A stretch of DNA of 64,000 nt. Source: Bacteroidota bacterium. GTDB taxonomy: Bacteria; Bacteroidota; Ignavibacteria; UBA10030. The stretch is taken from NCBI GenBank assembly GCA_035499415.1, contig DATJYV010000029.1:589-64588 (forward strand), in the 5' to 3' direction. The notes below the pieces were generated by a model. The model was not told the origin of the DNA. It made no database searches and saw only the letters and a list, made by a program, of their open reading frames with translations. The position numbers were made by a program, and so were the translations under genes. Shown in pieces: positions 25,247 to 47,912 of this stretch; position 1 is the first letter of the stretch, and each line of letters starts with the position of its first letter.

Positions 25247-25306
25247 GTCCGTTATTCCTGTTGTGATGCTTGAAGGTGCGCGTCCGTGGAGAGACTCCGG
25301 AACCTC

Positions 25307-25732: not shown

Positions 25733-25808
25733 TCAGCAGCATCTCCTTCCAGTGATTTCCGGGATGACCGCGACAACCTCTCCGCGACCGTCCCCAATCC
25801 CCGATCGC

Positions 25809-27143
25809 TCAGTGAATCTCGATACCGTGTTTATGCTGGAACTGTCGCAACGCTTCCCATGTCAGCGGTTGCGGCAGCTGCCCCATCAACTGATTCCACG
25901 TCATCGACTCGTCTCCCCCGTCGAGCCGGACCATCGAAATACAACCGTCGACGGGGCAGACGATAAAACAGAGCCGACAGCCGACGCAGTCAGACTCGCG
26001 GACCTTCGGCTGTGAATAGCTCTCCGCCGTTCCGTCGACCCGTATTGTCCCTTTCTTGAGGTCGATGCACTGATGGGCGCTGTCTTCGCATGCGATATAG
26101 CACAGATTGCACTGAATGCATTTGGATTCATCGATGCGGGCCACCGCCTTGTAGAGCAGATTGAGATTTCCAAAGTCGGTAATGCAGGCCAGTGATTTTC
26201 CGCGGACCTCCTCCAGCGTGCGATAACCCTTCCCTTCCATCCAGTTCGTCAAACCCTCTACCATGTCGTTCACAATGCGAAAACCGTAGTGCATGACGGC
26301 GGTACATACCTGAACGCTCGTGGCGCCCAGAAGGATGAATTCGGCGGCATCACGCCACGTCGAGATCCCGCCCATTCCCGAAACGGGAAGTCCAATCTCA
26401 GGGTCGATTGCGATTTGCGAAAGCATGTTCAGGGCAATCGGCTTCACCGCCGGACCCGCGTACCCTCCGTGCCCGCCTTTGCCGTCAATCGACGGCTTCA
26501 GCTCCAGCGTGTCCAGGTCGACGCCCATAATCGTGTTGATGGTATTGATAAGAGAAATGCCGCTCGCCTTTCCTTTTTTCGCAGCTCTTCCGGGATAGCG
26601 AATGTCCGTCACGTTCGGCGTGAGCTTCACGAGGACAGGGATGGTGGATACTTCGGTGACCCACTCCGTGATCATCGCACAGTATTCGGGGACTTGTCCC
26701 ACGGCCGACCCCATCCCGCGTTCGCTCATTCCGTGGGGACATCCGTAGTTCAACTCGATCCCATCGCATCCGGTGTCGATTGTCCGCTTCACCATATCGT
26801 GCCAGGTCTCGCGTTTGGATTCCACCATGAGCGACGCCACAACCGCGCGATCGGGCCAGAGTTTCTTCGTCTCCGCGATCTCGCGGAGATTCGTCTCGAT
26901 GGGCCGGTCGCTGATCAACTCAATGTTGTTGAGGCCGAGAATCTTCTGTCCGTTGTAATCCACGGCACCGTACCGGTTGACAACGTTCATGACCGGCTCG
27001 CCGATGGTTTTCCACACCGCGCCGCCCCACCCCGCCTCGAACGCCTTGCACACCTGGTACGAGGAATTTGTCGGCGGAGCCGAAGCCAGCCAGAAGGGAT
27101 TCGGAGACTTGATGCCGCCGCAATTAATTGAAAGGTCGGCCAT
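25809..27143 (-). CDS. preA: NAD-dependent dihydropyrimidine dehydrogenase subunit PreA (DHOD-like FMN domain plus 2x[4Fe-4S])
   Basis: 444 aa. TIM-barrel dihydroorotate-dehydrogenase-like core. C-terminal ferredoxin motifs CIQCNLCYIACED and CVGCRLCFIVCPV. Confidence 0.85.
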   Translation of the reverse strand: MADLSINCGGIKSPNPFWLASAPPTNSSYQVCKAFEAGWGGAVWKTIGEPVMNVVNRYGAVDYNGQKILGLNNIELISDRPIETNLREIAETKKLWPDRAVVASLMVESKRETWHDMVKRTIDTGCDGIELNYGCPHGMSERGMGSAVGQVPEYCAMITEWVTEVSTIPVLVKLTPNVTDIRYPGRAAKKGKASGISLINTINTIMGVDLDTLELKPSIDGKGGHGGYAGPAVKPIALNMLSQIAIDPEIGLPVSGMGGISTWRDAAEFILLGATSVQVCTAVMHYGFRIVNDMVEGLTNWMEGKGYRTLEEVRGKSLACITDFGNLNLLYKAVARIDESKCIQCNLCYIACEDSAHQCIDLKKGTIRVDGTAESYSQPKVRESDCVGCRLCFIVCPVDGCISMVRLDGGDESMTWNQLMGQLPQPLTWEALRQFQHKHGIEIH

Positions 27144-27159
27144 GACGTGGAAAGAAAAG

Positions 27160-27204
27160 GATTGAGGTTAAGGTTGAGGTTGAGGTTGAGGTTGAGGTTG
27201 AGGG
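27160..27204. repeat. Hexanucleotide microsatellite (GGTTGA/GGTTAA)x7 in the preT-preA intergenic spacer
   Basis: Direct reading: attgag gttaag gttgag gttgag gttgag gttgag gttgag ggc. It lies 20-60 nt upstream of the preA ATG. Confidence 0.85.
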
Positions 27205-27205
27205 C

Positions 27206-28561
27206 TCACGCGATTGATTTTTTCGAGAGATATTTGTCAATCCCATGCGCCGCACGCTTGCCGTCGTAGGCCGCGTTCACAACTTCCTTCCCGCCGTTGA
27301 TACAATCTCCGCCCGCGAAAACTTTCGCGTTCGTCGTCTGGTATGTCTCCGGGTCGACCGCAACTTTTCCGTTCTTCATCTTCACGCCGGGGATCTTCAG
27401 CACCAACTCCTTCGCAATTTCCTGGCCGATCGAGACGATCACCATATCCACCGGAATGGTGAACGTGGACCCGGGGATTTTTCTCAGCGTTTGACGACCT
27501 CCGGTGCGCGAGGTTTGCGCGACGACCCGTTCACATTCAATCCCCTTCACGTGTTTCTTCCCGACGATCCTTTTGGGAATGACGTTGAAGAAAAAGCGGA
27601 CTCCGTCGGTCTTGGCGAGGGCGTATTCAAAATCGTACGCAGACATGTCCTTTTCGGAACGCCGGTAGATGATGGACACGTCGTTCGCCCCCAGGCGTTT
27701 CGCCTCCGTCGCCGCGTCAATCGCGGTGTTTCCCGCCCCGATCACCGCAACGCGCGTGCCGACATCGACGGACTTCCAGCTCCGGGTCGTGACGCGTTGG
27801 ATGAACTCGAGGGCCTCATAAACGCCTTCAGTCGCTTCGCCGCGGATCCCCAGCCGCACCGCCCTGGGGAGACCCGTCCCGATGAACATGGCATCGTGCC
27901 GCTGCAGGAGTTCGTCCACGGTCATGTCTTTGCCGATTGTTACGCCCGTGCGAATGGAAACGCCCAGCTTTTCGACGAGGCCGACTTCCTTCATGCTGTC
28001 CGCCTGGCGCATCTTGTATGGAGCTATTCCCCACGTATCGAGTCCGCCCGGCTTTTTCTTGCCTTCGTAGACGACCGCCTCGTATCCCATGAGCGAAAGC
28101 TCGGCTGCGCACGCAAGTCCCGCCGGCCCGGCGCCGATGATGCCCACAGACTTTCCGTTTCTGGGCAAAGGATGGAACAGCGGGGGCGCCCCCGCTTCGA
28201 AGTACCGGTCCATCGCAAAGCGCTGCAACCGGCCGATTTGAATCGGTTCTTCTCCCCGCTCGTTGTAGACGCACGCTCCTTCGCACAGAACATCCACGGG
28301 GCACGCCTTCGCACACGTGAGCGCGACCCAGTTCGAGCTTAAGATCGTCTTCGCCGACCCTTGCAGATTCCCCGACGCAATCTTTTTGATGAACGTCGGA
28401 ATATCGATGTGGGTGGGGCAGGCCTTCGTGCAGGGAGAGTCGAAACAATAGAGACAGCGATTCGCATCGGCAACGGCAGCGTTCGCGGTAAAGGGGGGAT
28501 GGAGCTCGGCGAAGTTCTGCTCGTACTGCGAAGGAGGGAGTTTTGGGGCAACGTTCTTCAG
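27206..28561 (-). CDS. preT: NAD-dependent dihydropyrimidine dehydrogenase subunit PreT (glutamate-synthase small-subunit-like; FAD/NAD plus 2x[4Fe-4S])
   Basis: The track ORF starts at a GTG (28297). The same frame upstream encodes the conserved PreT N-terminus (AELHPPFTANAAVADANRCLYCFDSPCTKACPTHIDIPTFIKKIA...) without any ATG/GTG/TTG. The only candidate is a CTG at about 28561. The frame is contiguous with the aminotransferase gene, separated by a single TAA. Confidence 0.7.
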   Translation of the reverse strand: MKNVAPKLPPSQYEQNFAELHPPFTANAAVADANRCLYCFDSPCTKACPTHIDIPTFIKKIASGNLQGSAKTILSSNWVALTCAKACPVDVLCEGACVYNERGEEPIQIGRLQRFAMDRYFEAGAPPLFHPLPRNGKSVGIIGAGPAGLACAAELSLMGYEAVVYEGKKKPGGLDTWGIAPYKMRQADSMKEVGLVEKLGVSIRTGVTIGKDMTVDELLQRHDAMFIGTGLPRAVRLGIRGEATEGVYEALEFIQRVTTRSWKSVDVGTRVAVIGAGNTAIDAATEAKRLGANDVSIIYRRSEKDMSAYDFEYALAKTDGVRFFFNVIPKRIVGKKHVKGIECERVVAQTSRTGGRQTLRKIPGSTFTIPVDMVIVSIGQEIAKELVLKIPGVKMKNGKVAVDPETYQTTNAKVFAGGDCINGGKEVVNAAYDGKRAAHGIDKYLSKKSIA

Positions 28562-28579
28562 AAAAGACTCCGCGGGTTG

Positions 28580-29929
28580 TTAGACTGCCTCGGCATCCGC
28601 CAACGCGAGCGCTTCATCCATCACCCGGACCCCTTCGTCGATCTCCTTTTCTGTAACGATCAACGGAGGTGCAACCACGAAGTGACTCACCCACGCCTGG
28701 ATGAAGACGCCGTTCTGCATCATACGTCCCGCAATTTTCTCGACCATCGCGGGGACTCCGCTCACTTTATCCCTGAACGAATTGAAATACGTTTTCTTTT
28801 TCCGGTCCTTCACCAATTCCACACCCCAGAACAGGCCGAGCCCGCGGACCTCGCCGATGCATTTGTGCCGATCCTGGAGAGCGCGAAGTTTCTTCCCGAG
28901 GTACGCTCCCATGGTCTCGGCGCGTTCGATAAGGTTCAGTCTTCGATATTCGTTGATCGCCGCGATCGCCGGCGCCAGGGTCAGCGGATGGGCCTCATAG
29001 GTGTGGCCGTGCGCAAAGAAGTGGTCGTCAAAGTGGGACGCGACTTTCATCGTCGTGGCACACAGGCCGAGGGGAACATACGCCGTCGTGATCCCCTTTG
29101 CCGTGACGAGGATGTCCGGCCGTACGCCCCAATGGTCGACCGCAAACCACTTCCCCGTCCTCCCCCAACCGCTCATCACCTCGTCCGCAATCAGCAGGAC
29201 GTTGTTCCGGTCGCAGATCTCACGGAGCCGCGGCATGTACTCTTTCGGCGGAATGAGCACGCCGTTCGTACCGACGACGGGTTCGACGATCACCGCCGCA
29301 ACGTCGCTCTCGTTTTCGATCATGTGCTCCAGGTAATCAGCACAGGCGATGTCGCAAGCGGGATACTCATGGTTGATTGGACAGTCGTAGCAGTTGACCT
29401 CCGGCCCGAAGATGACCCCCTGGACTTTGCTTGCGGGTTCCGCCGCCCACCGGCGGGGGTCTCCCGTCGCGGCGATCGACCCCATCGTTGAACCGTGATA
29501 CGACCGGTAGCGCGCGATGATCTTCGTCTTGCCCGTCACCATCCGGGCGATCTTGAATGCGGCCTCGTTCGCCTCGGTTCCCGAGGTCGTAAAGAAGAAC
29601 TTCTCCAACCCCTTGGGGAGCACCTCGAGCAACATCTTGCTCAATTCGGCCCGGACATCCGTCGCATAGCCGGGGGCGATGTACGGGAGTTTCCGCGCCT
29701 GCTCCTCGATCGCACGGATGACCGCCTGATTCTTGTGTCCCAGCTGGACGCACATGAGCTGAGACGAGAAATCAAGATACTTCTTCCCCGCCGCATCCGT
29801 GAAATAGCAACCTTCCGCGTCGACGACGTGAAGCGGTTTCCATCCCTTCTGGAACCGCCACGTGCCGTACGTATTCCGGGCGGTAATATCGGTGATTTCC
29901 TGTGAGGTGAGTGAAGACGCCATGGTCAA
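28580..29929 (-). CDS. Class-III (omega) aminotransferase, probable beta-alanine/3-aminoisobutyrate:pyruvate or 2-oxoglutarate transaminase
   Basis: 449 aa, PLP fold-type I. Conserved class-III aminotransferase segments with a PLP-lysine region. Operon context. Confidence 0.8.
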   Translation of the reverse strand: MTMASSLTSQEITDITARNTYGTWRFQKGWKPLHVVDAEGCYFTDAAGKKYLDFSSQLMCVQLGHKNQAVIRAIEEQARKLPYIAPGYATDVRAELSKMLLEVLPKGLEKFFFTTSGTEANEAAFKIARMVTGKTKIIARYRSYHGSTMGSIAATGDPRRWAAEPASKVQGVIFGPEVNCYDCPINHEYPACDIACADYLEHMIENESDVAAVIVEPVVGTNGVLIPPKEYMPRLREICDRNNVLLIADEVMSGWGRTGKWFAVDHWGVRPDILVTAKGITTAYVPLGLCATTMKVASHFDDHFFAHGHTYEAHPLTLAPAIAAINEYRRLNLIERAETMGAYLGKKLRALQDRHKCIGEVRGLGLFWGVELVKDRKKKTYFNSFRDKVSGVPAMVEKIAGRMMQNGVFIQAWVSHFVVAPPLIVTEKEIDEGVRVMDEALALADAEAV

Positions 29930-30058
29930 ATCCGTCCTGTCGTATTGTCGTGCTGACTGGAAACTATCTCAAAAACCCAGATCGCGTCACCCTGAAACCC
30001 CGTAACGAAGCACGGGGCGGGCAAGTTCAGCTTGACGGTAGCTATTTTGAGACAGCGT

Positions 30059-30934
30059 CTAACCATACGCTTCCACCAGTTCCTTGTACGATTCAGGCCT
30101 ACGGTCGCGGAAGAACTGCCACACCTGCCGCACTTCCTGAATCATATCCATCGAAAGGTCGGCAACGACAAGCTCATCTTTATCCCGGCTGGCCTGGGCG
30201 ATAATCTTTCCCCGCGGATTACAGAAATAGCTCTTCCCATAGAACTCGCCGATGTTCCAGGGAGGTTCCGTCCCGACGCGATTGATCGCCCCGACAAAGT
30301 AGCCGTTGGCAACCGCGTGGGCCGGTTGTTCCAGTTCCCACAGATACTCCGAAAGCCCTGCCACGGTGGCCGAAGGGTTAAACACGATCTCCGCACCGTG
30401 CAGGCCCAGCACGCGCGCCCCCTCGGGAAAGTGCCGGTCATAGCAAATGTAGACACCGATGTCGGCATACTTCGTCTTGAAAACGGGATAGCCGGTGTTC
30501 CCCGGCTTGAAGTAGAATTTCTCCCAGAACCCCGGGTCGACCTGCGGTATATGATGCTTCCGGTATTTTCCGAGATAGGATCCGTCTGCGTCGATCACGG
30601 CGGCAGAATTATAGTACACGCCCGTCATCTCTTCTTCATACACGGGAGCGATGATCACCATTCCATATTTTTTCGCGTACGACTGGATGAGTTTGATGGT
30701 CGGACCGTCCGGAACTCGCTCGACCATCGCGTACCACTTCGTTTTCTGTTCGGCACAGAAGTACGGGCCGTAGAACAACTCCTGCATGCATAATATTTGA
30801 ACGCCCTTCCCTCCGGCCTGCTCGATGAGATGGACATGCTTGTCCACCATGGCCTTTTTGATCTTCTCGATGGGTTGTTCCGTCGACTCGGCGAGCTTGC
30901 ACTGAATCAGTCCGCCCCTCACAATACGAGACAT
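30059..30934 (-). CDS. Beta-ureidopropionase / N-carbamoyl-beta-alanine amidohydrolase (nitrilase superfamily)
   Basis: 291 aa CN-hydrolase with the Glu-Lys-Cys triad context (GVYICYDRHFPE). GGAGG RBS 5 nt before the ATG. Confidence 0.8.
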   Translation of the reverse strand: MSRIVRGGLIQCKLAESTEQPIEKIKKAMVDKHVHLIEQAGGKGVQILCMQELFYGPYFCAEQKTKWYAMVERVPDGPTIKLIQSYAKKYGMVIIAPVYEEEMTGVYYNSAAVIDADGSYLGKYRKHHIPQVDPGFWEKFYFKPGNTGYPVFKTKYADIGVYICYDRHFPEGARVLGLHGAEIVFNPSATVAGLSEYLWELEQPAHAVANGYFVGAINRVGTEPPWNIGEFYGKSYFCNPRGKIIAQASRDKDELVVADLSMDMIQEVRQVWQFFRDRRPESYKELVEAYG

Positions 30935-31794: not shown

Positions 31795-32886
31795 TTATGC
31801 CTGTGGCAGTGTGATTTTAACAACCGTTCCGTTCCCCGGCCGGCTCTGAACTTCCAGATTGCCGCCGTGAAGTTTGGCGAGGCGGGCGACAATCGTAAGC
31901 CCCAGCCCCGAACCCTGCTGTTCATAAATCTTTCGCTCAAATTGAACGAACGCCCCGATCCCGCCTATCTGCTCGGGAGACATGCCTCGTCCCTGGTCGG
32001 TCACCGAATAGACATAACCGTAATCACGGACTTCGGATTCGACCTTCACCGGCGATCCTGCCTTGGAGTACCGGAATGCGTTATCGAGGACTTCTTCCGC
32101 CATCTTCGAGAAATAGCCGGGTGCGATTGCGAGCGAAGAATCGACGAGCCGCACCAAAAGGTCGGACGACCTGTTGAACTCCTCCGATTTCACACGGCCC
32201 GTCCGTTCCAGCATCTCGGCAACGTTTATTGCGTGCGACTCTTCCCGCTGGTGCTCTGCATGGACTGCCGTCTGCTGGAGCTCGAGCTGCGCATACAGGA
32301 GATAATTTTCGACGAGACGCTGCAGCCGGCGGGCGTTCCGGTACATCCTCTCCGACATCCGCGCGATCTCGGCGGGCTGCAGGTCGTCGGATTGTTTGCG
32401 CATGAGGTCGGCATATCCGAGGATGCCGTTGAGCGGCGTGCGGAGTTCGTGCGGGAGCATGGCGCTCATGCTGATGCGAAGCTCATCCAGTTTTTTCCCC
32501 GCATCCTTCATCAGTCGACGATGCTTCTCCAGGCGCGCGTTCACGGCCGAAATGAGCTCCGCCCCGGTGAACGGTTTGGGAAGGTAATCGTCGGCGCCGA
32601 GCTCCATGCCGTGACGCATCCCTTCGCGGTCCGCCAGGGCCGTCATGAGAATGAACGGGATGCTGGCCGTCGAAGGGTTTTTTCGGATTGCCGAGAGCAT
32701 CTCGAATCCATCCACGACTCCCAGATGGATATCGCAGACGATAAGGTCCGGAAGTTGTTCCACCGCCAGTTCTATTCCTTCCGCGCCGTCGTCCGTCCCG
32801 AGCGTTTCAAACCCGTTCTGTCGCAGGACGCTGACGACAAACGCCTGCTGTGACCGCTCATCCTCTATGACCAGGACTTTTGTCAA
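31795..32886 (-). CDS. Hybrid response-regulator/histidine kinase (REC-HisKA-HATPase_c), cytoplasmic, no sensor domain
   Basis: The N-terminal receiver (KVLVIEDE...LIVCDIHLG) is followed by an H-box (LPHELRTPLNGILGYA) and an ATPase with N/G boxes. The probable start is TTG (MTKVLVIEDE), 4 nt after the GT2 stop. The longest ORF starts at 32946. Confidence 0.8.
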   Translation of the reverse strand: MTKVLVIEDERSQQAFVVSVLRQNGFETLGTDDGAEGIELAVEQLPDLIVCDIHLGVVDGFEMLSAIRKNPSTASIPFILMTALADREGMRHGMELGADDYLPKPFTGAELISAVNARLEKHRRLMKDAGKKLDELRISMSAMLPHELRTPLNGILGYADLMRKQSDDLQPAEIARMSERMYRNARRLQRLVENYLLYAQLELQQTAVHAEHQREESHAINVAEMLERTGRVKSEEFNRSSDLLVRLVDSSLAIAPGYFSKMAEEVLDNAFRYSKAGSPVKVESEVRDYGYVYSVTDQGRGMSPEQIGGIGAFVQFERKIYEQQGSGLGLTIVARLAKLHGGNLEVQSRPGNGTVVKITLPQA

Positions 32887-32890
32887 GTTG

Positions 32891-34197
32891 CTACCGGCGC
32901 TTCGGGCGGGAAAGGGGGATCGGCGAACGCGCGGCCTCCGGCACATCGAACCTTTTTGTCTTCTCCCAGAATTTCTTATCCTTCTTGAAATATTCCGTGT
33001 GGAGTGCCTTCAGGACGACGTAGATCCAGAGCTGGCAATAAGAAAAATACATGACGATCAGGAGGCCGACTTTTTTCAGGTCGTCCTCGCCGTCGAACGA
33101 GATCGCGAGCATGATTTCGAAAATGAAGAGGAAAAACGCGACGACCCACACAAATGTGTACGGTCCGGGAAGAGCGATGCTCACGAGGCTCGAGACGCTG
33201 AGGATGAACAGCAAATCGGAAATCAGAATCGCGCCGAAGAACACATAATACAGGGAGAGCGTGTACAGCAGGTCGAACGCGAGGCGGCGGTTTTTGAAGT
33301 TGGGGATGTGGCGGAAGAATTTTGAAACGACGTAATTGTTCCCTCGCACCCATCGCAGCCGCTGGCCGATCCACACGGACCATTCCTGCGGCTCCTGTTC
33401 GAACGTCACGGCGTAGGGAATGTATTTGATCCTGTATCCTTCCTCATAGATCCGGATGCTGAGCTCTGAATCCTCCGTGAGAGCGGCTTCGTCCCATCCC
33501 TGAAGGTCCCGGATGAGCTTCGTGCGGGCGACGAAATTCGTCCCCGGGAGGGTCGCGATGCCGTGCATCTCCCAACGGCCGGCCTGCAGCATGGACTGGA
33601 AGCTGAGCGTTTCGATGTTGATGAATTCTGTCAGGAGGTTGACATGTTTGTTGACGGTCCTGAACTTTCCGATGACGGCTCCGAGGTCGTCGTGCATCAC
33701 CAACTGTGCGACGAGATAGCGCAGGGCGCCCGGCTCCGGCGTGTTGTCGGCGTCGTAGATCGCCACGACATTCGAGCGTACGCGCTGAATCCCAAGGTTG
33801 AGCGCCCGGGCCTTTCCCCTGCCCCCTTCACCTTTGGGAACGTCGAACAGGATGATCCGCTTGTCCGCGCGGGCGTAGCGGCGCACGATATTCCGTGTTC
33901 CGTCCGTCGAGCCGTCGTTCACGACGACAATCGTCAACTTTCGGCGCGGGTAGTCCAGGGCCCTCATGGCATCCAGGGTTTGCGCGATCACCTTTTCTTC
34001 ATTATGCGCCGGGATGAGGATGGAACACGAGGGATAGTCTATTTCCATGGCGTCCACATCCGAGCGCTCGCGCATCGACCGGACATAATTCAGGAACCCG
34101 AAGACGGTCAGGACGAATTGGTACGCGATCATGAACCAGATGAGGATGACCGCGATGACGAACAGGAAGCTGAGGTCGACTTCGAACCAGGTCATCG
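32891..34197 (-). CDS. GT2 processive beta-glycosyltransferase (PgaC/IcaA/NodC/chitin-synthase-like polysaccharide synthase)
   Basis: N-terminal TMs, GT-A domain with DGSTD, YDADN (DxD) and GQRLRWVRGN (QxxRW), then 3-4 C-terminal TMs. The ATG (MTWFEVD...) overlaps the TGA of the upstream 1708-aa gene (ATGA). Confidence 0.8.
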
Positions 34198-37100
34198 CCG
34201 CGCGCTCCTGGCGGCGGGTTTTTTGCGCCCGACGACTTTCAGGCTGAGATACATGAGGAAGAGCGAAGTCACGGCTGCGGAGCCGAAAATGGCGATAGCC
34301 GTCGTCGACCACAGGCTTGTCACGTTGATCCCGTAGGAGAACTCGCCGCCGACTTCAATCTCCACCGAATGTTTTCCGGCCGGCAGGAGGAGACTGTAGC
34401 AATCATTCCCCTTGAGCACGGTCGGACGGACGGACTGGCCGTCGATCGTGAGGCCGGTCGGCTCGGCGTTGAGCGATACGATAGCACGGGGGCCGGAATC
34501 GTAGACCAGCGACGCGGAACGCATACCGTATGAGACGAACTCGAGATTCCCGGTGAACGACATGATCCTCGTTTGGAGTGCATGAGTGGAGAACGCACCC
34601 GCAGCGCCGGCTGCGAACCGGACTTCATGTTTCCCTGCGGGAATGAGGTACTCATTGTCCCGGAACGGCGAGAGGATGGCGCCGTCGACCGAGATCTCGG
34701 TGACCGTTCGGGGAAGCTTGAGATTGAAGGACGTGGGGCTCTCGAAATCATAGCCGGCGGCCGTCGGACTCGAGACGACGCGGCTCGCGGCGGCATACGG
34801 AAAGAACATCATGTCCTGCGGGTTGACTGTTTCTTCGCAGTAAATGGTAAATTTCCGGGCGCCCATCGAAGCCGCACGAACGAGCTGATAGCTTTCGACG
34901 CCCGTTTGAATGAGCGTCGGGAACGGCGTAACGACATCCTTCTTCCGGAAGCTCAGGATGTTGAGGTCGAGAGAAAGCCTGCTGCTGTCGCTCACAAATT
35001 TTTGATACATCGCCCCCATCGAAGCGTAGCGCGACGGATCCGTCGACCACAGCTTCTCCGGGTCTTCGACCTGCAGGATGAAGCCGTATTTATGCTGAAG
35101 CCGGATGATCTCCGACATGTCAGCGCCGTAATATTCCCGGAGTTCCGGCGAACCGAAGCTGTCCATGCCGGTCACGATCGTCTGGAACCCGGGCTTTGAC
35201 GCGGCCACATCCTGTGCCATCTTCAGCAGAATCTCGTATACTTCCGTGAGCTTCCCAACCCGATAATCGTCGACTTCCTGGCGCACTGCCGTGTTTTCGC
35301 GCCAGTAATAGAGTGAGCTCGGGTCGAAGATCTTCACAAGGTCAATCCCGTATTTCTTGCGAAACTCTCTCTGCGCGGAAGGATGCATCGGCGCGAACAC
35401 CCGCGGGTCCTCGTACCCGCGGCCTCCCTCGAAATAAAGCTCGGCGATGTTCACGCCGTCGAAATCGTACGCGAGGAGAAGTCTCCGGTACTCATCCGTC
35501 GCAGCTTCCACACACCGGGGGTCCGTCAGCGCCATGGCGTAACGCCACATCGGCGCGGCATCTTCCCCTTTGTAATTCTTTTCCCTCCATTCGGGATGCT
35601 GGTTCCAAAACTTCTGGCTCACCTGCGGCGGTTCGAGCCACGCATAGACAAGGATCCCGTTCGCGTGCGCGACGCGAATGAGCCGGCCGTAGTCGTACGT
35701 GTATTCCCGGTATTCGCGCAGCTTGGGATAATCGTGCCAGCCGGCAACATGCACGGCCCTGATTCCCTGGCCGACCCATCGCTTGACGAGGGCCTCAATA
35801 CTGTACGTCTGGCGAAGTCCGGGGTCGAAGAAGAAATCGAGCCCGTTGCGACGCACCACCGGACGAAGCCGAAAATACGACCGGACGTATTCCACGAAAT
35901 AAGGGTAGTGGGAATATCCTTCCTGTGACGTCGGGTCGAATCGGGCTCCAAGGAAGAGCACCTTTCCTTTCCCGTACCTCTTGCCGATGGCAAGAGGCGT
36001 TTCCGACTGTTCGTCCGAACAGAACGTCTCGTCCACCTCGTCCGCGTCGAATTTGTGGACGAGCTCCCAATTGCGCCAGGCGACGGGTTCCTCGGGGAAG
36101 AGATGATCCTCGACATGGAGGATCCTCTGCGTCGTTTGCACGTAGTGGATTCCGAATTCCTCCGCAAGGTCGTTCTTTCCGTCTGTCACGAGGTTTCCAC
36201 CGTCACGAACGAACTTCGTGATCGCGTCGTACTGCTCGTCCTTGAGCGAATCGACACTGCCGTAGGGGACGATGAGAAGATTGTAGCGGGCGAGGTTGAG
36301 GTTCTGGTCCGCGAAGATCGTATCGACGCGCAGGTTGACACTCCGGAGCGCGGAGACGAACGACGCCTGGTCGTTGTACGCCGCCCCTTTGACGTGATAG
36401 TCCCACAACACCGCCGGCCGCGCTTCCTGCCAGTCCTGGTCCGACTGAAACACGGTTTCGACCGCCCGCTCGGCCCGGTGGAAGACCTTTTCTGCGAGCG
36501 TCGCCTCGTGTTCATGGAACTCGGTCGGTTCGGCTTTGTAGAACTCCCCGGGGTTCAGGGTGATATGTTTCGTGATGGCCCCTTTGAGGCGGACGTCGGA
36601 TACGATACGCTTTGTCAATTCGCCGTTCGTATCAAAGTAGGCCTCGAGGAGATATTGGTCGTCGAGCGTGATCGTATAATCCTGGGTCCCCGCCAGAATC
36701 ACCCGGTCTTTGGTCTTCACCCATTGCTTCTGCTCCGTCAGGTCGGCAAATGTATATCCCAATTTTTCGATCCCTTCGACAAGCTCGTCGAGCAGGTCGA
36801 GGTCGAGAAACGAATGAAAGAAGCAGGCCGCGTATCCGTCCCGGACGTAGAGGTTCGCCTTCGCCCCCCGGATAATGTCCTGAACCGCCCGGCGGCTCAC
36901 ATTTTTATCTGCGTCGAGCGGCACGTAGCCGAGATTCTCCGGGTAGATTCGCTGGCCGTAGATGTCCTTCTTGATGACGTACGGGAACATCTGACTGTAC
37001 TCGTAGTTCTCGATCGCCAGGCGCTGTTCCATCGCAGAGCTGAAGTATTTTGCTATCGTGCGGTAGAGCAAAGTTGAAGCCGTGTAGTGCGGCGTCTCCC

Positions 37101-39318
37101 ACAGGAGCGGATAGATTCCGTTCCGCATGCATTCCTGAATGCCGAGTTCCACTTTCTTTGAAATCCACTCCGCGGATTCATCCCGCACCGGTCTGTTGGT
37201 GCTCTCGTCCCAGAACTCAAAATCAGTGGCGGTGATCCCTTTGTACTGATGCGTGATGCCGTGCAGGACGATCGTCGCGCCGTTCTTGACCATGTATTTG
37301 AGCGCATCGACAAGCTCCGGCTTGTCGGAGAGACTGACTCGAATGCCCTGGAAGGGGTCGACGTAAAACGGGATGACGCCGACAAGAAACGGAATCCCGC
37401 GGCTCGAAAGATGGTCAGCGACATCGCGAAGCTTGTTGGGGTCATCAAGGGGAGAAACGTCTTCAATGCGGATCAGTGCAGTGTGGGACTCCTCGTGCTG
37501 TTCGTGGAGGATGTCGTGGAGCATGTCCGCAAAAAGAAGGTAGCGATCGGTTTCCGTCGCCGAGGCAAAAGGCGAATCGGCCCAGTACATGAGATTCCCC
37601 GCCTGGATAATGTACGGAATCTCGACCCGCCGACGGTTCGAGTACGCCGTCCCGAGCACACGCGCACGCCGCCGGTTCAGGACGGTGACAAGGTTTGCGT
37701 TCGGTTCCCCTTTGGTGAACGTCTTCCCCTGGTAACGGACGACATCGTAAATGCTGACCGAATCGAGCTCCGTCACCTCGAAACCGTACTGTCTGCGGAC
37801 CCGCTGCGCGCGGCTGAATTCGGCGAAGCCGGTGTTCATCCAGATGACGGGCTTCGTCGTTTGCAGGATATCGTTCGTGAATTTTTCCGGCACCGGATTT
37901 ACGGCATTGAACCCGATGTAGAACGTGTAATCGAACCCGTTCATTTGCCCCGGTACATATTGATTGACGCCGATGACGACGTTGGACGTGTTGAAATGTC
38001 CCAGGAGCTGTTGCAGTTGCCGACCGTCCCCCATCGCGAGGTTGTTCAGGTCCGAGTTTCCTTCGACGACGACGAGCACGTGCTTGGGCGCATCCGGCGC
38101 CGCCCGCATCGGGCCAAAGAGGCCGCACAGAGACAAGCCGAGGGCGAGGACGATCTTGCGAATGCGCCGAGACGGACGGAATTCGCTCACTCTTCTGTTC
38201 GATAGCCCGAGATGCTTCTTGATGAACCCCGCGATCCGTTCGGCTGCGCGCCCATCACCATAGGGATTGACGGCCGACGCCATTTTCGCATACGCGGACC
38301 GGCTTTCAAGGAGTCGACGGGTTTCCCGGACGATTCGCTCCCGTGCGAGCCCCACCAGCCGTACGGTCCCGAAGTCGACAGCTTCGGGCCGCTCCGTGAC
38401 ATTTCGGAATACCAGAATGGGTTTTCCCAACGCCGGCCCCTCCTCCTGCACACCGCCGGAATCTGTCAGGATGAGGTACGAGCGCGCCATGAGGTTTACG
38501 AAGTCTTTGTAATCAAGAGGTTCGATGAGGATGATGTTCGGAATTCCGTCGAGGATCGGATAGACCGTTTCACGGACAAGAGGATTAAGATGAACCGGAA
38601 AGACAAAAAGATGGTCGCCGAACCTGGCCGCAATCTGCTTGACGGCCCGGCACGCCCCCTCCATGGGCGCTCCCCAGTTCTCACGCCGATGCATGGTCAA
38701 CAGGATGATTCTACGTCTGCTGGCAACCGCTTTCCGAACCGCCGCGCTGCCGAATTCGTGGTCGGCGCGCACCGCGAGGTTCAGCGCATCGATGACGGAG
38801 TTTCCGGTCACGTGAATCCGGTCCGGGTTGATGTGCTCACGCAAGAGCGCGCGCCGCGCGGTCTCGGTTGGAGCGAAGTGAAGGTCGGCCAACGCGCTCG
38901 TGAGCCGTCGATTAATCTCCTCCGGAAAAGGGTTCGCCTTGTCCCCTGTGCGCAAGCCGGCTTCCACGTGGCCGACCGGAATGCCACGATAAAAAGCGGC
39001 GAGACTTCCGGCAAACGTCGTTGTCGTATCGCCCTGGACAAGTACCATGTCGGGGTGCTCGCTCTGAAGCACCGGGTCGAGTGCGGCAATTGTCCTCTCC
39101 GTGAGGGCTGCGAGCGTTTGCCGGGGCCGCATGATATTCAGATCGTGGTCGGGGTGGATTCCAAAAACATCCAAAACCTGGTCGAGCATGTGACGATGTT
39201 GGGCCGTGGCGATCGAAACCACCGAAAACAGTTTGGGCTCTTCCCTGAGCCGGAGAATGACTGGTGCGAGCTTGATCGTATCCGGCCTGGTGCCGAATAT
39301 GACGGCGATTTTTCTCAC
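34192..39318 (-). CDS. 1708-aa multidomain membrane protein: UDP-GlcNAc 2-epimerase (WecB-like) - TM - polysaccharide-deacetylase-like (DUF2334/CE4-like) - GATase1/ThuA-like - TIM-barrel glycosidase-like - beta-sandwich domains - C-terminal TM
   Basis: GTG start. Residues 1-375 carry the non-hydrolysing epimerase motifs HVEAGLRTGD and DSGGVQEE. A TM helix (IVLALGLSLCGLFG) follows. Then come IRIEDVSPLDD and LHGITHQY (deacetylase-like), NLLIVPYGSV...DGGNLV (ThuA-like), and GIRAVHVAGWHDYP...ILVYAWLEPP...FDGVNIAELYFEGG (glycosyl-hydrolase-like TIM barrel). The C-terminus has Ig-like repeats and a TM (AIAIFGSAAVTSLFLMYLSL). The antisense ORFs were rejected. Confidence 0.7.
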   Translation of the reverse strand: MRKIAVIFGTRPDTIKLAPVILRLREEPKLFSVVSIATAQHRHMLDQVLDVFGIHPDHDLNIMRPRQTLAALTERTIAALDPVLQSEHPDMVLVQGDTTTTFAGSLAAFYRGIPVGHVEAGLRTGDKANPFPEEINRRLTSALADLHFAPTETARRALLREHINPDRIHVTGNSVIDALNLAVRADHEFGSAAVRKAVASRRRIILLTMHRRENWGAPMEGACRAVKQIAARFGDHLFVFPVHLNPLVRETVYPILDGIPNIILIEPLDYKDFVNLMARSYLILTDSGGVQEEGPALGKPILVFRNVTERPEAVDFGTVRLVGLARERIVRETRRLLESRSAYAKMASAVNPYGDGRAAERIAGFIKKHLGLSNRRVSEFRPSRRIRKIVLALGLSLCGLFGPMRAAPDAPKHVLVVVEGNSDLNNLAMGDGRQLQQLLGHFNTSNVVIGVNQYVPGQMNGFDYTFYIGFNAVNPVPEKFTNDILQTTKPVIWMNTGFAEFSRAQRVRRQYGFEVTELDSVSIYDVVRYQGKTFTKGEPNANLVTVLNRRRARVLGTAYSNRRRVEIPYIIQAGNLMYWADSPFASATETDRYLLFADMLHDILHEQHEESHTALIRIEDVSPLDDPNKLRDVADHLSSRGIPFLVGVIPFYVDPFQGIRVSLSDKPELVDALKYMVKNGATIVLHGITHQYKGITATDFEFWDESTNRPVRDESAEWISKKVELGIQECMRNGIYPLLWETPHYTASTLLYRTIAKYFSSAMEQRLAIENYEYSQMFPYVIKKDIYGQRIYPENLGYVPLDADKNVSRRAVQDIIRGAKANLYVRDGYAACFFHSFLDLDLLDELVEGIEKLGYTFADLTEQKQWVKTKDRVILAGTQDYTITLDDQYLLEAYFDTNGELTKRIVSDVRLKGAITKHITLNPGEFYKAEPTEFHEHEATLAEKVFHRAERAVETVFQSDQDWQEARPAVLWDYHVKGAAYNDQASFVSALRSVNLRVDTIFADQNLNLARYNLLIVPYGSVDSLKDEQYDAITKFVRDGGNLVTDGKNDLAEEFGIHYVQTTQRILHVEDHLFPEEPVAWRNWELVHKFDADEVDETFCSDEQSETPLAIGKRYGKGKVLFLGARFDPTSQEGYSHYPYFVEYVRSYFRLRPVVRRNGLDFFFDPGLRQTYSIEALVKRWVGQGIRAVHVAGWHDYPKLREYREYTYDYGRLIRVAHANGILVYAWLEPPQVSQKFWNQHPEWREKNYKGEDAAPMWRYAMALTDPRCVEAATDEYRRLLLAYDFDGVNIAELYFEGGRGYEDPRVFAPMHPSAQREFRKKYGIDLVKIFDPSSLYYWRENTAVRQEVDDYRVGKLTEVYEILLKMAQDVAASKPGFQTIVTGMDSFGSPELREYYGADMSEIIRLQHKYGFILQVEDPEKLWSTDPSRYASMGAMYQKFVSDSSRLSLDLNILSFRKKDVVTPFPTLIQTGVESYQLVRAASMGARKFTIYCEETVNPQDMMFFPYAAASRVVSSPTAAGYDFESPTSFNLKLPRTVTEISVDGAILSPFRDNEYLIPAGKHEVRFAAGAAGAFSTHALQTRIMSFTGNLEFVSYGMRSASLVYDSGPRAIVSLNAEPTGLTIDGQSVRPTVLKGNDCYSLLLPAGKHSVEIEVGGEFSYGINVTSLWSTTAIAIFGSAAVTSLFLMYLSLKVVGRKKPAARSARR

Positions 39319-39476
39319 AGTCTGCCGTCAGCGACGGTCAATACCCTGTCCACCATGAAATCAAAATAGAGGATTTTTGAAAGGTGTGCAAGTAGAAGAA
39401 CGACGGGAAGAAAAGCGGCCGACTCTCCCGGGTGTTTGAATCCGGGGAGCGGGATGAACCGGCGGGGAAAAATGAA

Positions 39477-39938
39477 TTACTCGGTGACCGTGTAGATTAT
39501 CTTGGGCGTTTCCTGTCCGAGGGTCGACCGGGGAAAATCATAGTCGACATCGATGGTACGGGCCGAAGAGGCATCGCCGCCCGGCGAGAGCGTAATCGAT
39601 TCCCCGCGGGCGACCAACTGTTGAACCGTGACGGTTTGCATTGATGTCCGGGTTTCAACCGTCATGCGCTGCGAGGTGCCGCGATCCAAATCAGCCGTGA
39701 CCTTTGTGGATTGGGAGGGTGACCCTTGAAGCTCGAGAGATGCCCGAACGCCTTCCACAGCGCCGGAGCCCGCAAGCGGAATTGCCCGGGCGTTGCTCAG
39801 AGGGTTGATGACGAGCCGATGAGAGATGCTGACGCCGAAGACCACCTGCTGAACTGCTGAAGAGCGGACCTGACCGTGCGAATCCTGGACGATTCCGGCG
39901 GTTAACATGATCAAGAGTATGGATTTTCGGCAGCTCAC
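39477..39938 (-). CDS. Small secreted Thr/Ser-rich protein, fimbrial-subunit-like (family member 1)
   Basis: 153 aa. N-terminal signal-like segment. C-terminal beta-strand IIYTVTE. 1-nt spacing to the neighbouring gene. Confidence 0.4.
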   Translation of the reverse strand: MSCRKSILLIMLTAGIVQDSHGQVRSSAVQQVVFGVSISHRLVINPLSNARAIPLAGSGAVEGVRASLELQGSPSQSTKVTADLDRGTSQRMTVETRTSMQTVTVQQLVARGESITLSPGGDASSARTIDVDYDFPRSTLGQETPKIIYTVTE

Positions 39939-39939
39939 G

Positions 39940-40497
39940 TTAGTCCGTCAAAGTCAAGGTTACGAGACGTTCGTCTCTGTCGATTCCACCGACGCCGGAA
40001 CCTGCGACAAAGGTGTATCGGATCGACTGGTCTCTGTCGCTCCCCCTGCCGATCCCGGTCACGACATCAACAGGTACGAGGGCCGCTGAAATGTCGACAT
40101 CGCCAACGCTGCTTGCGCGTCCCGACGCGAGGTTGATCTTGAGCCGGGTTCCACTCGGCATGCTTGAGTTGATCGAGGCAACGATTTTCACATTATCGAG
40201 ATTTGTCGCTATGCTGTATTGCGAATGCTGGTCGGAAACGCTTACGTCTTCGCCCGCGTAGACCTTTTGCACCATGAGAGGCGCAGGATTTCCCGTCACT
40301 CTCAGCACTGCTATCGGCCGGACCTCGACCGTTACGATCTGCTTCACGGAGCTGTGAATCGGCTGCGGGAATGCGACCGAAATGATTGACAGGAGGGAGA
40401 GCCCTATGAACGGAAGTCTCGTCAAGGGATGCGATCGATGAGGCAAGAACGCTAAAGATGAAGCGATTGTCAAGTTTGCAATTGGCGCCGGTGGCAT
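39940..40497 (-). CDS. Small secreted pilin-like subunit (family member 2)
   Basis: The C-terminal half (...SVGDVDISAALVPVDVVTGIGRGSDRDQSIRYTFVAGSGVGG..RLVTLTLTD) parallels the 46205/46758 paralogues. The signal peptide is LPFIGLSLLSIISVAFPQ. The start is an ATG (MPPAP) or a TTG further in. Confidence 0.45.
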   Translation of the reverse strand: MPPAPIANLTIASSLAFLPHRSHPLTRLPFIGLSLLSIISVAFPQPIHSSVKQIVTVEVRPIAVLRVTGNPAPLMVQKVYAGEDVSVSDQHSQYSIATNLDNVKIVASINSSMPSGTRLKINLASGRASSVGDVDISAALVPVDVVTGIGRGSDRDQSIRYTFVAGSGVGGIDRDERLVTLTLTD

Positions 40498-40681
40498 GTT
40501 CGATCTTGGGCGAATCATGACCACAGGAAGGACAACAACCATGCCCTCCCGCCAGCTCACGCCGCGAAGGAGCAACGTCGATAACTAATTGCCAATAAGG
40601 ATGTTGGAGAGAGGTGATTCGAAGGGCTGGAAGATGGAGGGATGATCGAATTGTAGTTTCTACAATTCCACAGCTATCAGC

Positions 40682-44576: not shown

Positions 44577-45029
44577 CTATTGAGCGACGAGTGTGTAGGT
44601 GATTGTATGGACATCGTTGCCGAGTTCGGCGCTGTTGCCTTGTTCAAATGTTGCCGATGCGGAGTACTTCAGGGTCGCTGTGGCATTCGTTGTCCCCGTG
44701 GCGGGGATGTTCGTGATGAAATCGGCGGCAGCCATTCCGTTCGTCAATGTCACGGCAGGGGACGCAACTCCTTTCGTCGGACTCACGGCAACCACAGAAA
44801 GCGAAAAACTCTGGCCCGAGCAAACGGTTGCCACAGTGACCTTTGAGATGGCCGTTTGCTTCTTGTATGTCAAGGTGCAGGAAGAATTTGTCACAGCGGC
44901 GGGTTCAGAGCCCGCGACTCCGGTAGTTATAGAGAGCGTCTTATTACCTCCGGAAATGCTGATTTGTTGAGCTGAGGCGCTTGACAGAAGCAATGCGACT
45001 GCGGGTAAGAGGAGCAAGAGCTTGTGCAC
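44577..45029 (-). CDS. Small secreted pilin-like subunit (family member 3)
   Basis: GTG start gives the signal peptide MHKLLLLLPAVALLLSSASAQQ (the longest ORF starts at 45143). Two Cys. C-terminal strand HTITYTLVAQ. Confidence 0.45.
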   Translation of the reverse strand: MHKLLLLLPAVALLLSSASAQQISISGGNKTLSITTGVAGSEPAAVTNSSCTLTYKKQTAISKVTVATVCSGQSFSLSVVAVSPTKGVASPAVTLTNGMAAADFITNIPATGTTNATATLKYSASATFEQGNSAELGNDVHTITYTLVAQ

Positions 45030-45033
45030 GGCT

Positions 45034-45537
45034 TTATTGGGTCGCGATAGTGAACGTGATCGTGTGCGAATCCGTCCCCGTTCCCTGGGAGGCAAGGGCA
45101 ACGGCAGTATATTGGAGCGTGCAACTTCCTGTGCTTCGGCCAAGATTGGTCAGAAAATCCTGGGCGGTGTGTGTGATGGTGACCTGGGAAGCTGCGGTCC
45201 CGACCGTGGGGTTCAGGGCAACGAGTTTGAGTGCAAAGAGTTGTGTTGTCAGATTCGTTTGCACCGTAACCTTTTTGGTACTGCTGTTGATGCCCCATTG
45301 GAGGGATGTTGCCTGGTTAGTGGCGCTCATGGTGTTCTGGCCCGCCACGGCGTTGGCCCCCGTAATTGTGAAACTGACTGCGCCTCCGGTTACCGTCACG
45401 TTGGTAATCGTCGAAACCGTGACCGTGATCGTGTGGGACGCTGATCCATACGTCTGACCCTTGGCAAGAAACAGAGGAAGGATGAAAAATATCCCCAGCA
45501 ATATCGGGCGGTTGAATCGAGGTCGAAGGGATCCCAT
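45034..45537 (-). CDS. Small secreted pilin-like subunit (family member 4)
   Basis: Signal peptide MGSLRPRFNRPILLGIFFILPLFLAKGQ. Thr/Val-rich strands. C-terminus SHTITFTIATQ. The SCTLQYTAVALASQG motif is shared with member 5. Confidence 0.45.
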   Translation of the reverse strand: MGSLRPRFNRPILLGIFFILPLFLAKGQTYGSASHTITVTVSTITNVTVTGGAVSFTITGANAVAGQNTMSATNQATSLQWGINSSTKKVTVQTNLTTQLFALKLVALNPTVGTAASQVTITHTAQDFLTNLGRSTGSCTLQYTAVALASQGTGTDSHTITFTIATQ

Positions 45538-45610
45538 ATATTCGCGAAACACGTTCGGAGCCGGTGAAATATAGCCCTCTAATCGAGGATTATCAAGTTG
45601 AGACAGTGCC

Positions 45611-46120
45611 TCAACTCCCTGTAATAGTATACGTAATCGTATGCGTCTCGCTCCCGACCCCCTTTTCAAGGGTTGCGGCCCCCGTGAATTGAAGCGTGCA
45701 GCTTCCCGCCGAGCGACTCACCCCAACGATGAGGTCGTGAGTCGAGTTGTCAGAAAACACCACGTCGCTCGAACTGACCCCCGACCCTGAACTGACGTCC
45801 TGGGCCGACAAGCGAAGGTCGAATTTTGAACCCGACCGATCGCTTTCGGCCGTAATCTTTCGATTCTCCCCGTTACTCGTCCAGACCAACCTGGTAGCGC
45901 CGCTCATCGCGGGCGAAGGGTTGGAAGTTTCCGGGTCGAAATCGGTGATCTTGAGCGTAACCGGACCGCCTGAGATATCTATCGTGTTCAGTTCGAGGAC
46001 TTGAAGCCGAATCACCTGCGTGACCGAAGCACGCTGGGCGAAAAGTGTTGCGGACCCTGCTGCGAAAATCAGGAGGGTCTGCAGTGCTCTTCGTCTTATG
46101 TCGTGTCGTTTGGTGTTCAT
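45611..46120 (-). CDS. Small secreted pilin-like subunit (family member 5)
   Basis: Signal peptide MNTKRHDIRRRALQTLLIFAAGSATLFAQ. SCTLQFTGAATLEKG motif. C-terminus THTITYTITGS. Confidence 0.45.
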   Translation of the reverse strand: MNTKRHDIRRRALQTLLIFAAGSATLFAQRASVTQVIRLQVLELNTIDISGGPVTLKITDFDPETSNPSPAMSGATRLVWTSNGENRKITAESDRSGSKFDLRLSAQDVSSGSGVSSSDVVFSDNSTHDLIVGVSRSAGSCTLQFTGAATLEKGVGSETHTITYTITGS

Positions 46121-46204
46121 CGCTCGAGGCCTCGAAGATAGAAAAACCGTAGCGGCGACAGCTGGAAAACGCACGCTACGGCTTTCTCTCTCCTCCAGAG
46201 ATTC

Positions 46205-46705
46205 TTAGTTCGTCAACGTTAAGGTGACTACTTTTGCTGTGGATGAAAGCGTACCGGCAGAAGCGTTCGCACCGAATGAGTAGGTGATCATCTGGCCGGC
46301 ATCCGCGCCTCTGTTGATACCTGTAACGACGCTCAAAGCACTGCCGGATGTTGCGTTGGAGATATCGACCGCTCCGGCGCTGGTCCCTTTGGAGCTTGCA
46401 AGGTTAATCGAAAGCGAGTAACCGGACGAAAGGGCGGCATCGAGATTCGCCGTGATCTTCACCGTATTCGCGTAGTTCTGCGTGATGCTGTAGGTCGTTG
46501 AATTGTCCGTGACGCTCGTGAGGTTATCCGATCCAGGAGTTCCGGTCGTGATCGTGAGGGCTCCCGGGTTTCCCGACGTCGAGATCTTGTAGATTGCGTT
46601 GACGGCGAGGTTCAGATTCTGCGTTGCCGTGGCTTGTGCGACTGCCGACTCGACGAGCAGAGAGCTGGCGGCGACAAGCGCGAGGGTGATGATGGTCTTT
46701 TTCAT
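46205..46705 (-). CDS. Small secreted pilin-like subunit, candidate major subunit (paralogue A)
   Basis: 166 aa. Signal peptide MKKTIITLALVAASSLLVESAVAQA. The mature N-terminus ATATQNLNLAVNAIYKIS has an alternating donor-strand-like pattern. C-terminal VVTLTLTN. About 75% identical to the next gene. Confidence 0.5.
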   Translation of the reverse strand: MKKTIITLALVAASSLLVESAVAQATATQNLNLAVNAIYKISTSGNPGALTITTGTPGSDNLTSVTDNSTTYSITQNYANTVKITANLDAALSSGYSLSINLASSKGTSAGAVDISNATSGSALSVVTGINRGADAGQMITYSFGANASAGTLSSTAKVVTLTLTN

Positions 46706-46757
46706 GATGGTATCCGTTCGATGAAGGTTGAGGTTTGGTGGTTTTTCAATTCGGTTG

Positions 46758-47252: not shown

Positions 47253-47379
47253 GACGAACTCCTTTTGTCTGGATTGGTGGATCGTTTTGTTTCCCGTATA
47301 ACCATCAATCCCCATGCCAATCCAGTTTTTGAACGAAAAATGGCGTTTTCCCAGATACGATTTGTTTTTCGTGAATTGA

Positions 47380-47893: not shown

Positions 47894-47912
47894 CACGAAA
47901 GAGAGTCTTCCC

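Follow-up and report, generated by a model that had tools for sequence, protein, structure and literature searches.

Why would an enzyme that makes a nucleotide sugar in the cytoplasm be encoded in one polypeptide with a large module predicted to modify polysaccharide in the periplasm? The question is raised by a gene on contig DATJYV010000029.1 of a Bacteroidota metagenome-assembled genome (MAG) from the class Ignavibacteria (UBA10030; GCA_035499415.1). We analysed the gene within a stretch of 64,000 nucleotides (nt), positions 589 to 64,588 of the contig, referred to here as the window. An earlier reading of the letters alone (the original prediction) had proposed that a UDP-N-acetylglucosamine (UDP-GlcNAc) 2-epimerase is fused to periplasmic tailoring domains between two transmembrane (TM) helices. 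Our analysis established the domain identities, folds, topology signals and gene order of this locus, together with the origin and rarity of the fusion. The locus probably represents the core of a Yda/Pss-type system for a synthase-dependent N-acetylhexosamine exopolysaccharide, in which two translationally coupled genes, normally separate, have become one.

The fused gene and its domains

A single uninterrupted open reading frame (ORF) of 1708 codons occupies 34192-39318 on the minus strand, with an in-frame TGA upstream at 39330-39328. Its product is identical to HTP79078.1, which NCBI labels as a UDP-GlcNAc 2-epimerase only. GTG at 39318-39316 is the sole start that retains the WecB N-terminus 'KIAVIFGTRPD', as had been proposed. 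ORFs on the opposite strand across the gene had no family matches and were rejected as real genes. From the N-terminus to the C-terminus, the parts of the fused gene are as follows.

34192..39318, minus: fused ORF, 1708 amino acids (aa), GTG start; NCBI HTP79078.1
38194..39318, minus: WecB/MnaA non-hydrolysing UDP-GlcNAc 2-epimerase domain, residues 1-375, predicted cytoplasmic (TIGR00236, MnaA alignment, motifs)
38098..38193, minus: linker 'RVSEFRPSRRIRK' and first TM segment (TM1, 389-407), residues 376-407 (hydropathy; junction comparison with 10 unfused relatives)
37519..38097, minus: alpha/beta flavodoxin-like N-terminal periplasmic domain, residues 408-600 (model secondary structure; blastp coverage)
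36772..37479, minus: DUF2334 (YdaL family) domain with a predicted deacetylase-like fold of carbohydrate esterase family 4 (CE4), residues 614-849 (Pfam; predicted fold)
36523..36726, minus: beta-sandwich linker domain, residues 865-932 (model strands 458-525)
35896..36417, minus: GATase1/ThuA/GH42-trimerisation-like domain, residues 968-1141
34837..35859, minus: (beta/alpha)8 barrel, closest to the glycoside hydrolase (GH) domain GH153 of PgaB/BpsB, residues 1154-1494
34351..34776, minus: one or two beta-sandwich, immunoglobulin (Ig)-like domains, residues 1515-1656 (model strands 366-507)
34234..34302, minus: C-terminal TM helix (TM2), residues 1673-1695, then cytoplasmic tail GRKKPAARSARR (hydropathy; kept in all relatives)

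Family models place the first 375 residues firmly among the WecB enzymes. Pfam Epimerase_2 spans residues 30-367 (E 5e-118), and the wecB model TIGR00236 gives 475.5 bits (cutoff 210.15; residues 3-367; model length 366 positions). The model for hydrolysing NeuC enzymes reaches 75.8 bits on the same domain, below its cutoff of 235.9, and a NeuC-type epimerase was rejected on that score. The domain matches Bacillus subtilis MnaA (4fkz/1o6c) end to end (E 2e-121), and the WecB/MnaA structures of B. subtilis, B. anthracis and E. coli all gave full-length matches (E about 1e-116 to 1e-121). Motifs GD97TTT, HVE119AGLR (within HVEAGLRTGD), PFPE133E, MH210RREN and DSGGVQEE are intact, in agreement with the claim that WecB hallmarks and catalytic residues are kept; D97, E119, E133 and H210 lie within conserved motifs and align with B. 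subtilis MnaA. In E. coli WecB, we take D95, E117, E131 and H213 to be the catalytic acid/base and UDP-binding residues. By sequence, then, residues 1-375 form a non-hydrolysing UDP-GlcNAc 2-epimerase with predicted activity.

For the remainder of the protein, two structures were predicted from a 62-sequence alignment, covering residues 408-1170 (predicted local distance difference test score, pLDDT, 86) and 1150-1670 (pLDDT 87; predicted template modelling score, pTM, 0.89). DUF2334 (PF10096) matches residues 614-849 at 171.8 bits against a gathering threshold of 26 (E 2e-50; profile positions 2-202 of 203), and in the model this region folds as a CE4-type (beta/alpha)7 barrel. Its invariant motifs, RIED (617-620), HGxxH (H686-x3-H690), WETPHY (740-745) and FFH (833-835), resemble CE4 motifs 1, 2, 3 and 5 by inspection, without side-chain superposition. 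The flavodoxin-like domain preceding it also occurs in the short DUF2334 proteins that Ralstonia, Streptomyces and Salibacterium encode. Further along, Pfam Glyco_hydro_42M matches residues 981-1130 (E 5e-9), the ThuA and GHL6 matches are weak, and residues 1515-1656 are all-beta in the model. When the YdaL-like alignment was used as a profile against PDB sequences, no meaningful matches were returned. All the domain types originally listed (epimerase, deacetylase-like, ThuA/GATase-like, TIM-barrel and Ig-like) were found. As modelled, the periplasmic module appears to be built like PgaB, combining a de-N-acetylase with a hydrolase barrel, but with DUF2334 as the deacetylase and with anchoring in the inner membrane.

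Exactly two segments, 389-407 and 1673-1695, pass the membrane-segment criterion (Kyte-Doolittle mean >1.3 over 19 residues), and the second closes the protein as first proposed. TM1 is preceded by RRVSEFRPSRRIRK and TM2 is followed by GRKKPAARSARR, giving each an Arg/Lys-rich flank on the predicted cytoplasmic side. Because of these flanks and the positive-inside rule, both termini are predicted to be cytoplasmic, with residues 408-1672 (about 1265 residues) outside.

Origin and rarity of the fusion

The fusion is present in five distinct sequences, which bears out the claim that the epimerase and the periplasmic domains share one polypeptide. Four are distinct 1708-aa sequences from different assemblies that form a 90% cluster; the fifth, from GCA_041478155.1 (locus L001), is a relative at 71% identity whose in-frame junction is the same, reading 'EFSPSRKVKK' where the window reads 'EFRPSRRIRK' (...EFSPSRKVKKLAIVPLL in L001; ...EFRPSRRIRKIVLALGL in the window).

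Unfused loci indicate how this junction was made. Their wecB ends '...YFG.S....EF(R/K)PR*' (10 unfused relatives compared), and the next gene opens with MKK..., a hydrophobic core, small residues and then Q/E-E-Y-P, a classical signal peptide; the wecB stop and the next start often overlap as ATGA. Because this wecB tail and this signal peptide match the fused junction, the fusion arose by loss of the wecB stop at the wecB-ydaL junction, so that the wecB tail now enters the old signal peptide, whose n-region in the fused protein is RRIRK. The same tail, '...YFG.S....EF(R/K)PR', extends past the usual end of the epimerase fold in the standalone WecBs of loci L004, L005, L007, L011, L014, L027, L032 and L060 and makes up the linker of the fused protein; it might contact the membrane or a partner, or reflect a constraint of the overlapping downstream start.

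The start of the gene differs between the fused forms. Over 3067-3340 of L001 (JBGOVN010000017.1), no ATG, GTG or TTG keeps the WecB N-terminus; CTG stands where the window has GTG, and the gene caller started at an internal ATG. The 90 codons upstream of the called ATG remain in frame, and across the first 85 codons the window and L001 differ at 37 codons synonymously and at 17 non-synonymously. Because of this ratio and the kept reading frame, the upstream codons of L001 are taken to be translated and under purifying selection, which points to a non-canonical start.

To place the fusion among its relatives, 80 species-level Ignavibacteriota/Bacteroidota loci were scanned with the window's proteins. 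A separate wecB (61-69% identical) lies directly upstream on the same strand at 41 of the 80; 36 have no adjacent wecB, and 3 lack enough flank to tell. Only one of the 80 is fused (L003, on the same contig as L001). The original prediction had held that missing catalytic residues, with the epimerase widely separate in relatives, would indicate a wrongly joined annotation: the epimerase is indeed separate at those 41 loci, but the fusion is genuine. The unfused protein of ~1315 aa, named 'YdaL' by the Joint Genome Institute, is abundant in Ignavibacteriota/Bacteroidota MAGs; of the best 120 protein clusters, only 2 contain Epimerase_2. The window and L003 group together as one clade in a neighbour-joining tree built from the YdaL part, and the wecB-linked loci are scattered across it; this clustering of the two fused forms indicates a single fusion event. 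No representative carries both parts in a search of 1.8 billion representatives (50% identity clusters). A search with the junction-spanning residues 250-560 was dominated by standalone WecBs, missed the window's own cluster and is uninformative on the number of fusions. By sequence comparison the fusion is thus a rare derived state and, since nearly all relatives use separate genes, a covalent tether is not needed for the pathway.

A second long YdaL-like architecture of 1580-1766 aa (P0129, P0130, P0142, P0145, P0163 and others) has a signal peptide and, ahead of the usual module, an extra domain of ~380 aa that may be a further TIM barrel of the GHL type, judging from motifs such as 'VRFDPSYYY...GINTVFFRAYDP...VFAWLPV'. 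The possibility that these proteins have a cytoplasmic fusion partner was rejected, the additional sequence being, on inspection, a signal peptide and a TIM-barrel-like periplasmic domain.

The predicted pathway and its alternatives

The conserved module in relatives is (wecB)-ydaL-GT2, in which GT2 denotes a family 2 glycosyltransferase. In the window, the GT2 start overlaps the fused gene's stop (ATGA), and a regulatory gene follows.

32891..34195, minus: GT2 processive synthase, YdaM/PgaC type, 434 aa, ATG at 34195 (Pfam Glyco_tranf_2_3; TIGR03937; blastp)
31795..32946, minus: hybrid response-regulator/histidine kinase (REC-HisKA-HATPase), syntenic in the fused relative L001, start uncertain

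From these parts we infer enzyme activities, N-acetylmannosamine (ManNAc) as the monomer, and any substrate channelling. At the membrane's cytoplasmic face, the WecB domain would convert UDP-GlcNAc to UDP-ManNAc, the established chemistry of its family. The GT2 would polymerise the sugar, a ManNAc chain judging from gene linkage and the Pss precedent, and pass the chain through the inner membrane. The remainder of the fused protein would lie in the periplasm, kept in place by the former signal peptide, which would now serve as an internal signal-anchor, and by the C-terminal TM helix. To go by its folds, the DUF2334/CE4-fold domain would partly de-N-acetylate the polymer and the GH153-like barrel would cleave or trim it, both as in PgaB, with the GATase1-like and beta-sandwich domains acting as scaffold or sugar-binding modules. 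The main physical consequence of the fusion would be an epimerase tethered to the membrane at 1:1 with the modifying enzyme. Whether this couples substrate supply to polymer modification is conjecture. A more elaborate arrangement, which we regard as rather unlikely, has the uncleaved protein forming a two-TM 'staple' around the GT2: the epimerase would sit at the synthase's cytoplasmic active site and pass UDP-ManNAc, the minor species at the epimerase equilibrium, directly to the polymerase, and the same polypeptide would deacetylate and trim the chain outside. If true, one polypeptide would couple the first and last steps of exopolysaccharide synthesis across the inner membrane.

The proposed precursor draws support from gene order in other phyla. 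Salibacterium (Bacillota; L089, 8001-13271) has ydaL(DUF2334)-GT2-wecB-GH8, the Ralstonia wenshanensis p56D2 megaplasmid (Betaproteobacteria; L083, 2352-10802) has GT-TPR-wecB-hypothetical-DUF2334, and on a Streptomyces plasmid (Actinomycetota; L084, 4744-11023) wecB-GT2 adjoins DUF2334. With the window's lineage included, wecB, DUF2334 and GT2-type genes are linked in four phyla. The window's GT2 is 42.5% identical over 409 aa, its whole length, to the GT2 of the Salibacterium operon, in keeping with its assignment to the YdaM/PssC type. The Ralstonia and Streptomyces DUF2334 proteins match the window's protein over about 520 residues, including the N-terminal domain; some Ralstonia records label this gene 'papd-like protein' or 'cell wall anchor'. 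In Listeria, the Pss polymer is built on a beta-1,4-ManNAc backbone with alpha-1,6-galactose and needs the GT2 PssC and the deacetylase PssB (PMC13492145, PMC6307706, PMC4125290), and what the ydaJKLMN polymer of B. subtilis consists of has yet to be defined (PMC13274460, PMC9800504). Because of the wecB linkage and the published Pss structure, we infer a ManNAc-containing polymer of the Pss/Yda type. UDP-ManNAc as polymer precursor, one of the original proposals, is well supported by wecB upstream at 41 of 80 loci and by the three other phyla.

Several points weigh against this interpretation. About 45% of related loci have no adjacent wecB, leaving the ManNAc dependence of the family unproven. 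The CE4 and GH153 catalytic residues are assigned from motifs and fold only, and the enzyme activities of the long YdaL-like family are predicted only. Among the window ORFs tested there is no GGDEF or cyclic di-GMP (c-di-GMP) receptor, BcsB-like protein, GH8 or outer-membrane exporter, so the system departs in several components from both Pss/Yda and Pga. Listeria PssB is presumably a DUF2334 protein; a protein search with a Bacillus YdaL-like query returned only Bacillus-group proteins and none from Listeria. Finally, the hydrophobic core of TM1, IVLALGLSLCGLF, has only about 13-16 residues, and TM1 may be a cleaved signal peptide and not a stable anchor.

This last point underlies the alternative that survives best, a possibility we hold open although we do not favour it. 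The internal segment would still be a Sec signal peptide, cut by signal peptidase I after translocation to yield a C-terminally anchored WecB and a periplasmic enzyme shaped like its unfused relatives; the fusion would be a near-neutral substitute for translational coupling, with no lasting tether. Such cleavage is possible, TM1 having originated as a cleavable signal peptide and its core being short. Its homologues, the N-terminal signal peptides of unfused relatives, carry small -3/-1 residues (ASG↓Q, SAG↓Q, GLG↓Q), an A-R-S↓E site is kept in L001, and the rarity of the fusion suggests that it is not needed for function. Against cleavage, the candidate sites in the window's c-region, GPMRAAPDAP, have unfavourable -3/-1 residues or Pro at +1, and internal signal peptides are seldom cleaved.

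We consider it improbable that the polymer is instead like poly-N-acetylglucosamine (PNAG), made from UDP-GlcNAc, with WecB serving another glycan of ManNAc or its uronic acid (ManNAcA), or balancing pools, and linked by chance. PgaC_IcaA (TIGR03937) is the curated model that the GT2 matches best, the TIM barrel is nearest the PgaB GH153 domain, which acts on PNAG, and the 36 loci without an adjacent wecB would fit. That GT2 match, however, is 151.2 bits, far under the equivalog cutoff of 422.3, and the closer kinship is to the GT2 of the Salibacterium ydaL operon. Moreover, in four phyla wecB accompanies genes for DUF2334 and GT proteins, and the stop of one gene often overlaps the start of the next; there is also no wecC or ManNAc transferase nearby in the window.

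Less probable still is a catalytically silent WecB domain that acts as a cytoplasmic UDP-GlcNAc sensor, with the synthase or the periplasmic enzyme under its control. Allosteric binding of UDP-GlcNAc is known from WecB enzymes, and the L001 WecB domain has no canonical start codon; but the window's domain scores at twice the equivalog cutoff with every catalytic motif intact, purifying selection runs along the entire WecB domain, and at the corresponding place in the operon the standalone orthologues are ordinary WecBs. The weakest account, an artefact of assembly or sequencing (a frameshift or lost stop in a MAG), was rejected: the parts are separate genes 0-20 nt apart in nearly all relatives, where a one-base error could merge them, but the four distinct sequences from different assemblies and the 71%-identical relative share the in-frame junction, and no ATG, GTG or TTG could start the periplasmic part with its own intact signal peptide.

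If the Yda/Pss-type interpretation holds, the fusion is a natural 'Rosetta stone' which, with the four-phylum linkage, ties the little-studied YdaL/DUF2334 systems to UDP-ManNAc. That linkage predicts ManNAc polymers for the YdaL family, a prediction directly testable for the B. subtilis Yda polymer, and may outweigh the fusion in usefulness. The Ignavibacteriota YdaL versions would extend the PgaB design, a deacetylase with a GH153-type hydrolase, to a different deacetylase family. The fused form is also a handy construct for asking whether membrane tethering of an epimerase raises flux to the synthase and whether a former signal peptide can act as an internal anchor.

Regulatory region, neighbouring genes and known systems

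Two features around the start of the fused gene could bear on its expression.

39301..39329, minus: inverted repeat around the GTG start; present, structure unsupported
39365..39393, minus: conserved 29-nt block ACTTGCACACCTTTCAAAAATCCTCTATT, near-identical in L001 where the flanks have diverged

The inverted repeat that had been noted, GACGGC (39329-39324), 17 nt and GCCGTC (39306-39301), exists, but its proposed role as a hairpin occluding the start did not stand. The minimum-free-energy fold omits the repeat, a nearer CCGUC/GACGG hairpin taking the 5' arm; the z-score of the start-codon region is only -2.1, and the repeat was not found in L001. We therefore rejected a functional start-codon hairpin. 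Lying about 45-75 nt upstream of the GTG, the block ACTTGCACACCTTTCAAAAATCCTCTATT is the better regulatory candidate and likely a promoter or operator of the fused gene. A scan for sigma-70 promoters and terminators, which does not cover Bacteroidota-type promoters, gave chance-level counts.

Elsewhere in the window, seven paralogous small secreted Ser/Thr/Ala-rich proteins (153-211 aa) are encoded on the minus strand at 39477-40575 and 44577-47315. They have a common C-terminal motif ('TLTLTN', 'TITYTITGS' or 'TFTIATQ', for example), belong to no Pfam/NCBIfam family, and lie on either side of a protein of 301 aa and a CarboxypepD_reg/SPOR protein of 1016 aa; the set also occurs in L002. A sigma-54 activator (47835-49298, plus strand) is divergent from this cluster, which may be an undescribed set of surface-fibre or matrix proteins beside the polysaccharide genes. 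The minus-strand genes at 21291-30934 (a cytosine/uracil-type permease, an amidohydrolase, a PreA-like DHO_dh with 4Fe-4S, a class-III aminotransferase and a CN_hydrolase) are likely a reductive pyrimidine-catabolism cluster. At 4477-6996 and 10959-15903, also on the minus strand, a GH94 phosphorylase, a protein sorted by the type IX secretion system (Por_Secre_tail) and a TonB-dependent receptor fit a host of the Fibrobacterota-Chlorobiota-Bacteroidota (FCB) group.

Compared with known systems, the epimerase domain shares its catalytic and UDP-binding motifs with standalone WecB/MnaA enzymes (E. coli 1f6d, B. subtilis 4fkz, B. anthracis 3beo). Those are soluble homodimers, whereas the C-terminus of the fused domain runs into a membrane segment and a 1265-residue periplasmic enzyme. 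Other glycan-pathway fusions found in the databases join a WecA-like GT4 to WecB, WecB to GT2, WecB to Polysacc_deac_1/DUF3473, and WecC to WecB, and published work describes PgaB-like deacetylases with a GT domain fused at the N-terminus (PMC7112194). In some of these, WecB is already part of a membrane protein, or a periplasmic deacetylase is linked to a cytoplasmic catalytic domain; among the fusions seen, no other WecB is combined with a periplasmic module of the DUF2334/GH153-like kind. Mergers of pathway neighbours are common, and in our searches an epimerase predicted to be joined across the membrane to a PgaB-like enzyme was met only here.

The PgaB/PgaC systems (BpsB/BpsC, IcaB/IcaA) differ from the window in several respects. 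Their deacetylase is of the Polysacc_deac_1 family and that of the window is DUF2334; PgaB is an outer-membrane lipoprotein, whereas the window's protein is predicted to be anchored by TM helices in the inner membrane. PgaA and PgaD were not found in the window or in the relatives' conserved wecB-ydaL-GT2 module, and the GT2 falls well under the PgaC equivalog cutoff. PNAG synthesis needs no UDP-GlcNAc 2-epimerase, and the window has one linked.

Closer parallels are Listeria monocytogenes Pss (pssA-E, pssZ) and B. subtilis YdaJKLMN, which likewise pair a membrane-anchored, deacetylase-like protein of the DUF2334/YdaL type with a GT2 of ~420 aa. They possess a degenerate-GGDEF c-di-GMP receptor (YdaK/PssE) where the window has the REC-HisKA-HATPase gene, and they have a BcsB-like YdaN/PssD and a GH8 (YdaJ/PssZ) where the window has a GH153-like barrel within the YdaL homologue. 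That homologue is 2.3x longer than its Pss/Yda counterpart, with GATase1-like, GH153-like and extra beta-sandwich domains before the C-terminal TM helix. The window's host is Gram-negative, and the WecB fusion is confined to its lineage. The ManNAc backbone of the Pss polymer (PMC13492145) nonetheless fits the epimerase that is linked, and here fused, to the YdaL homologue.

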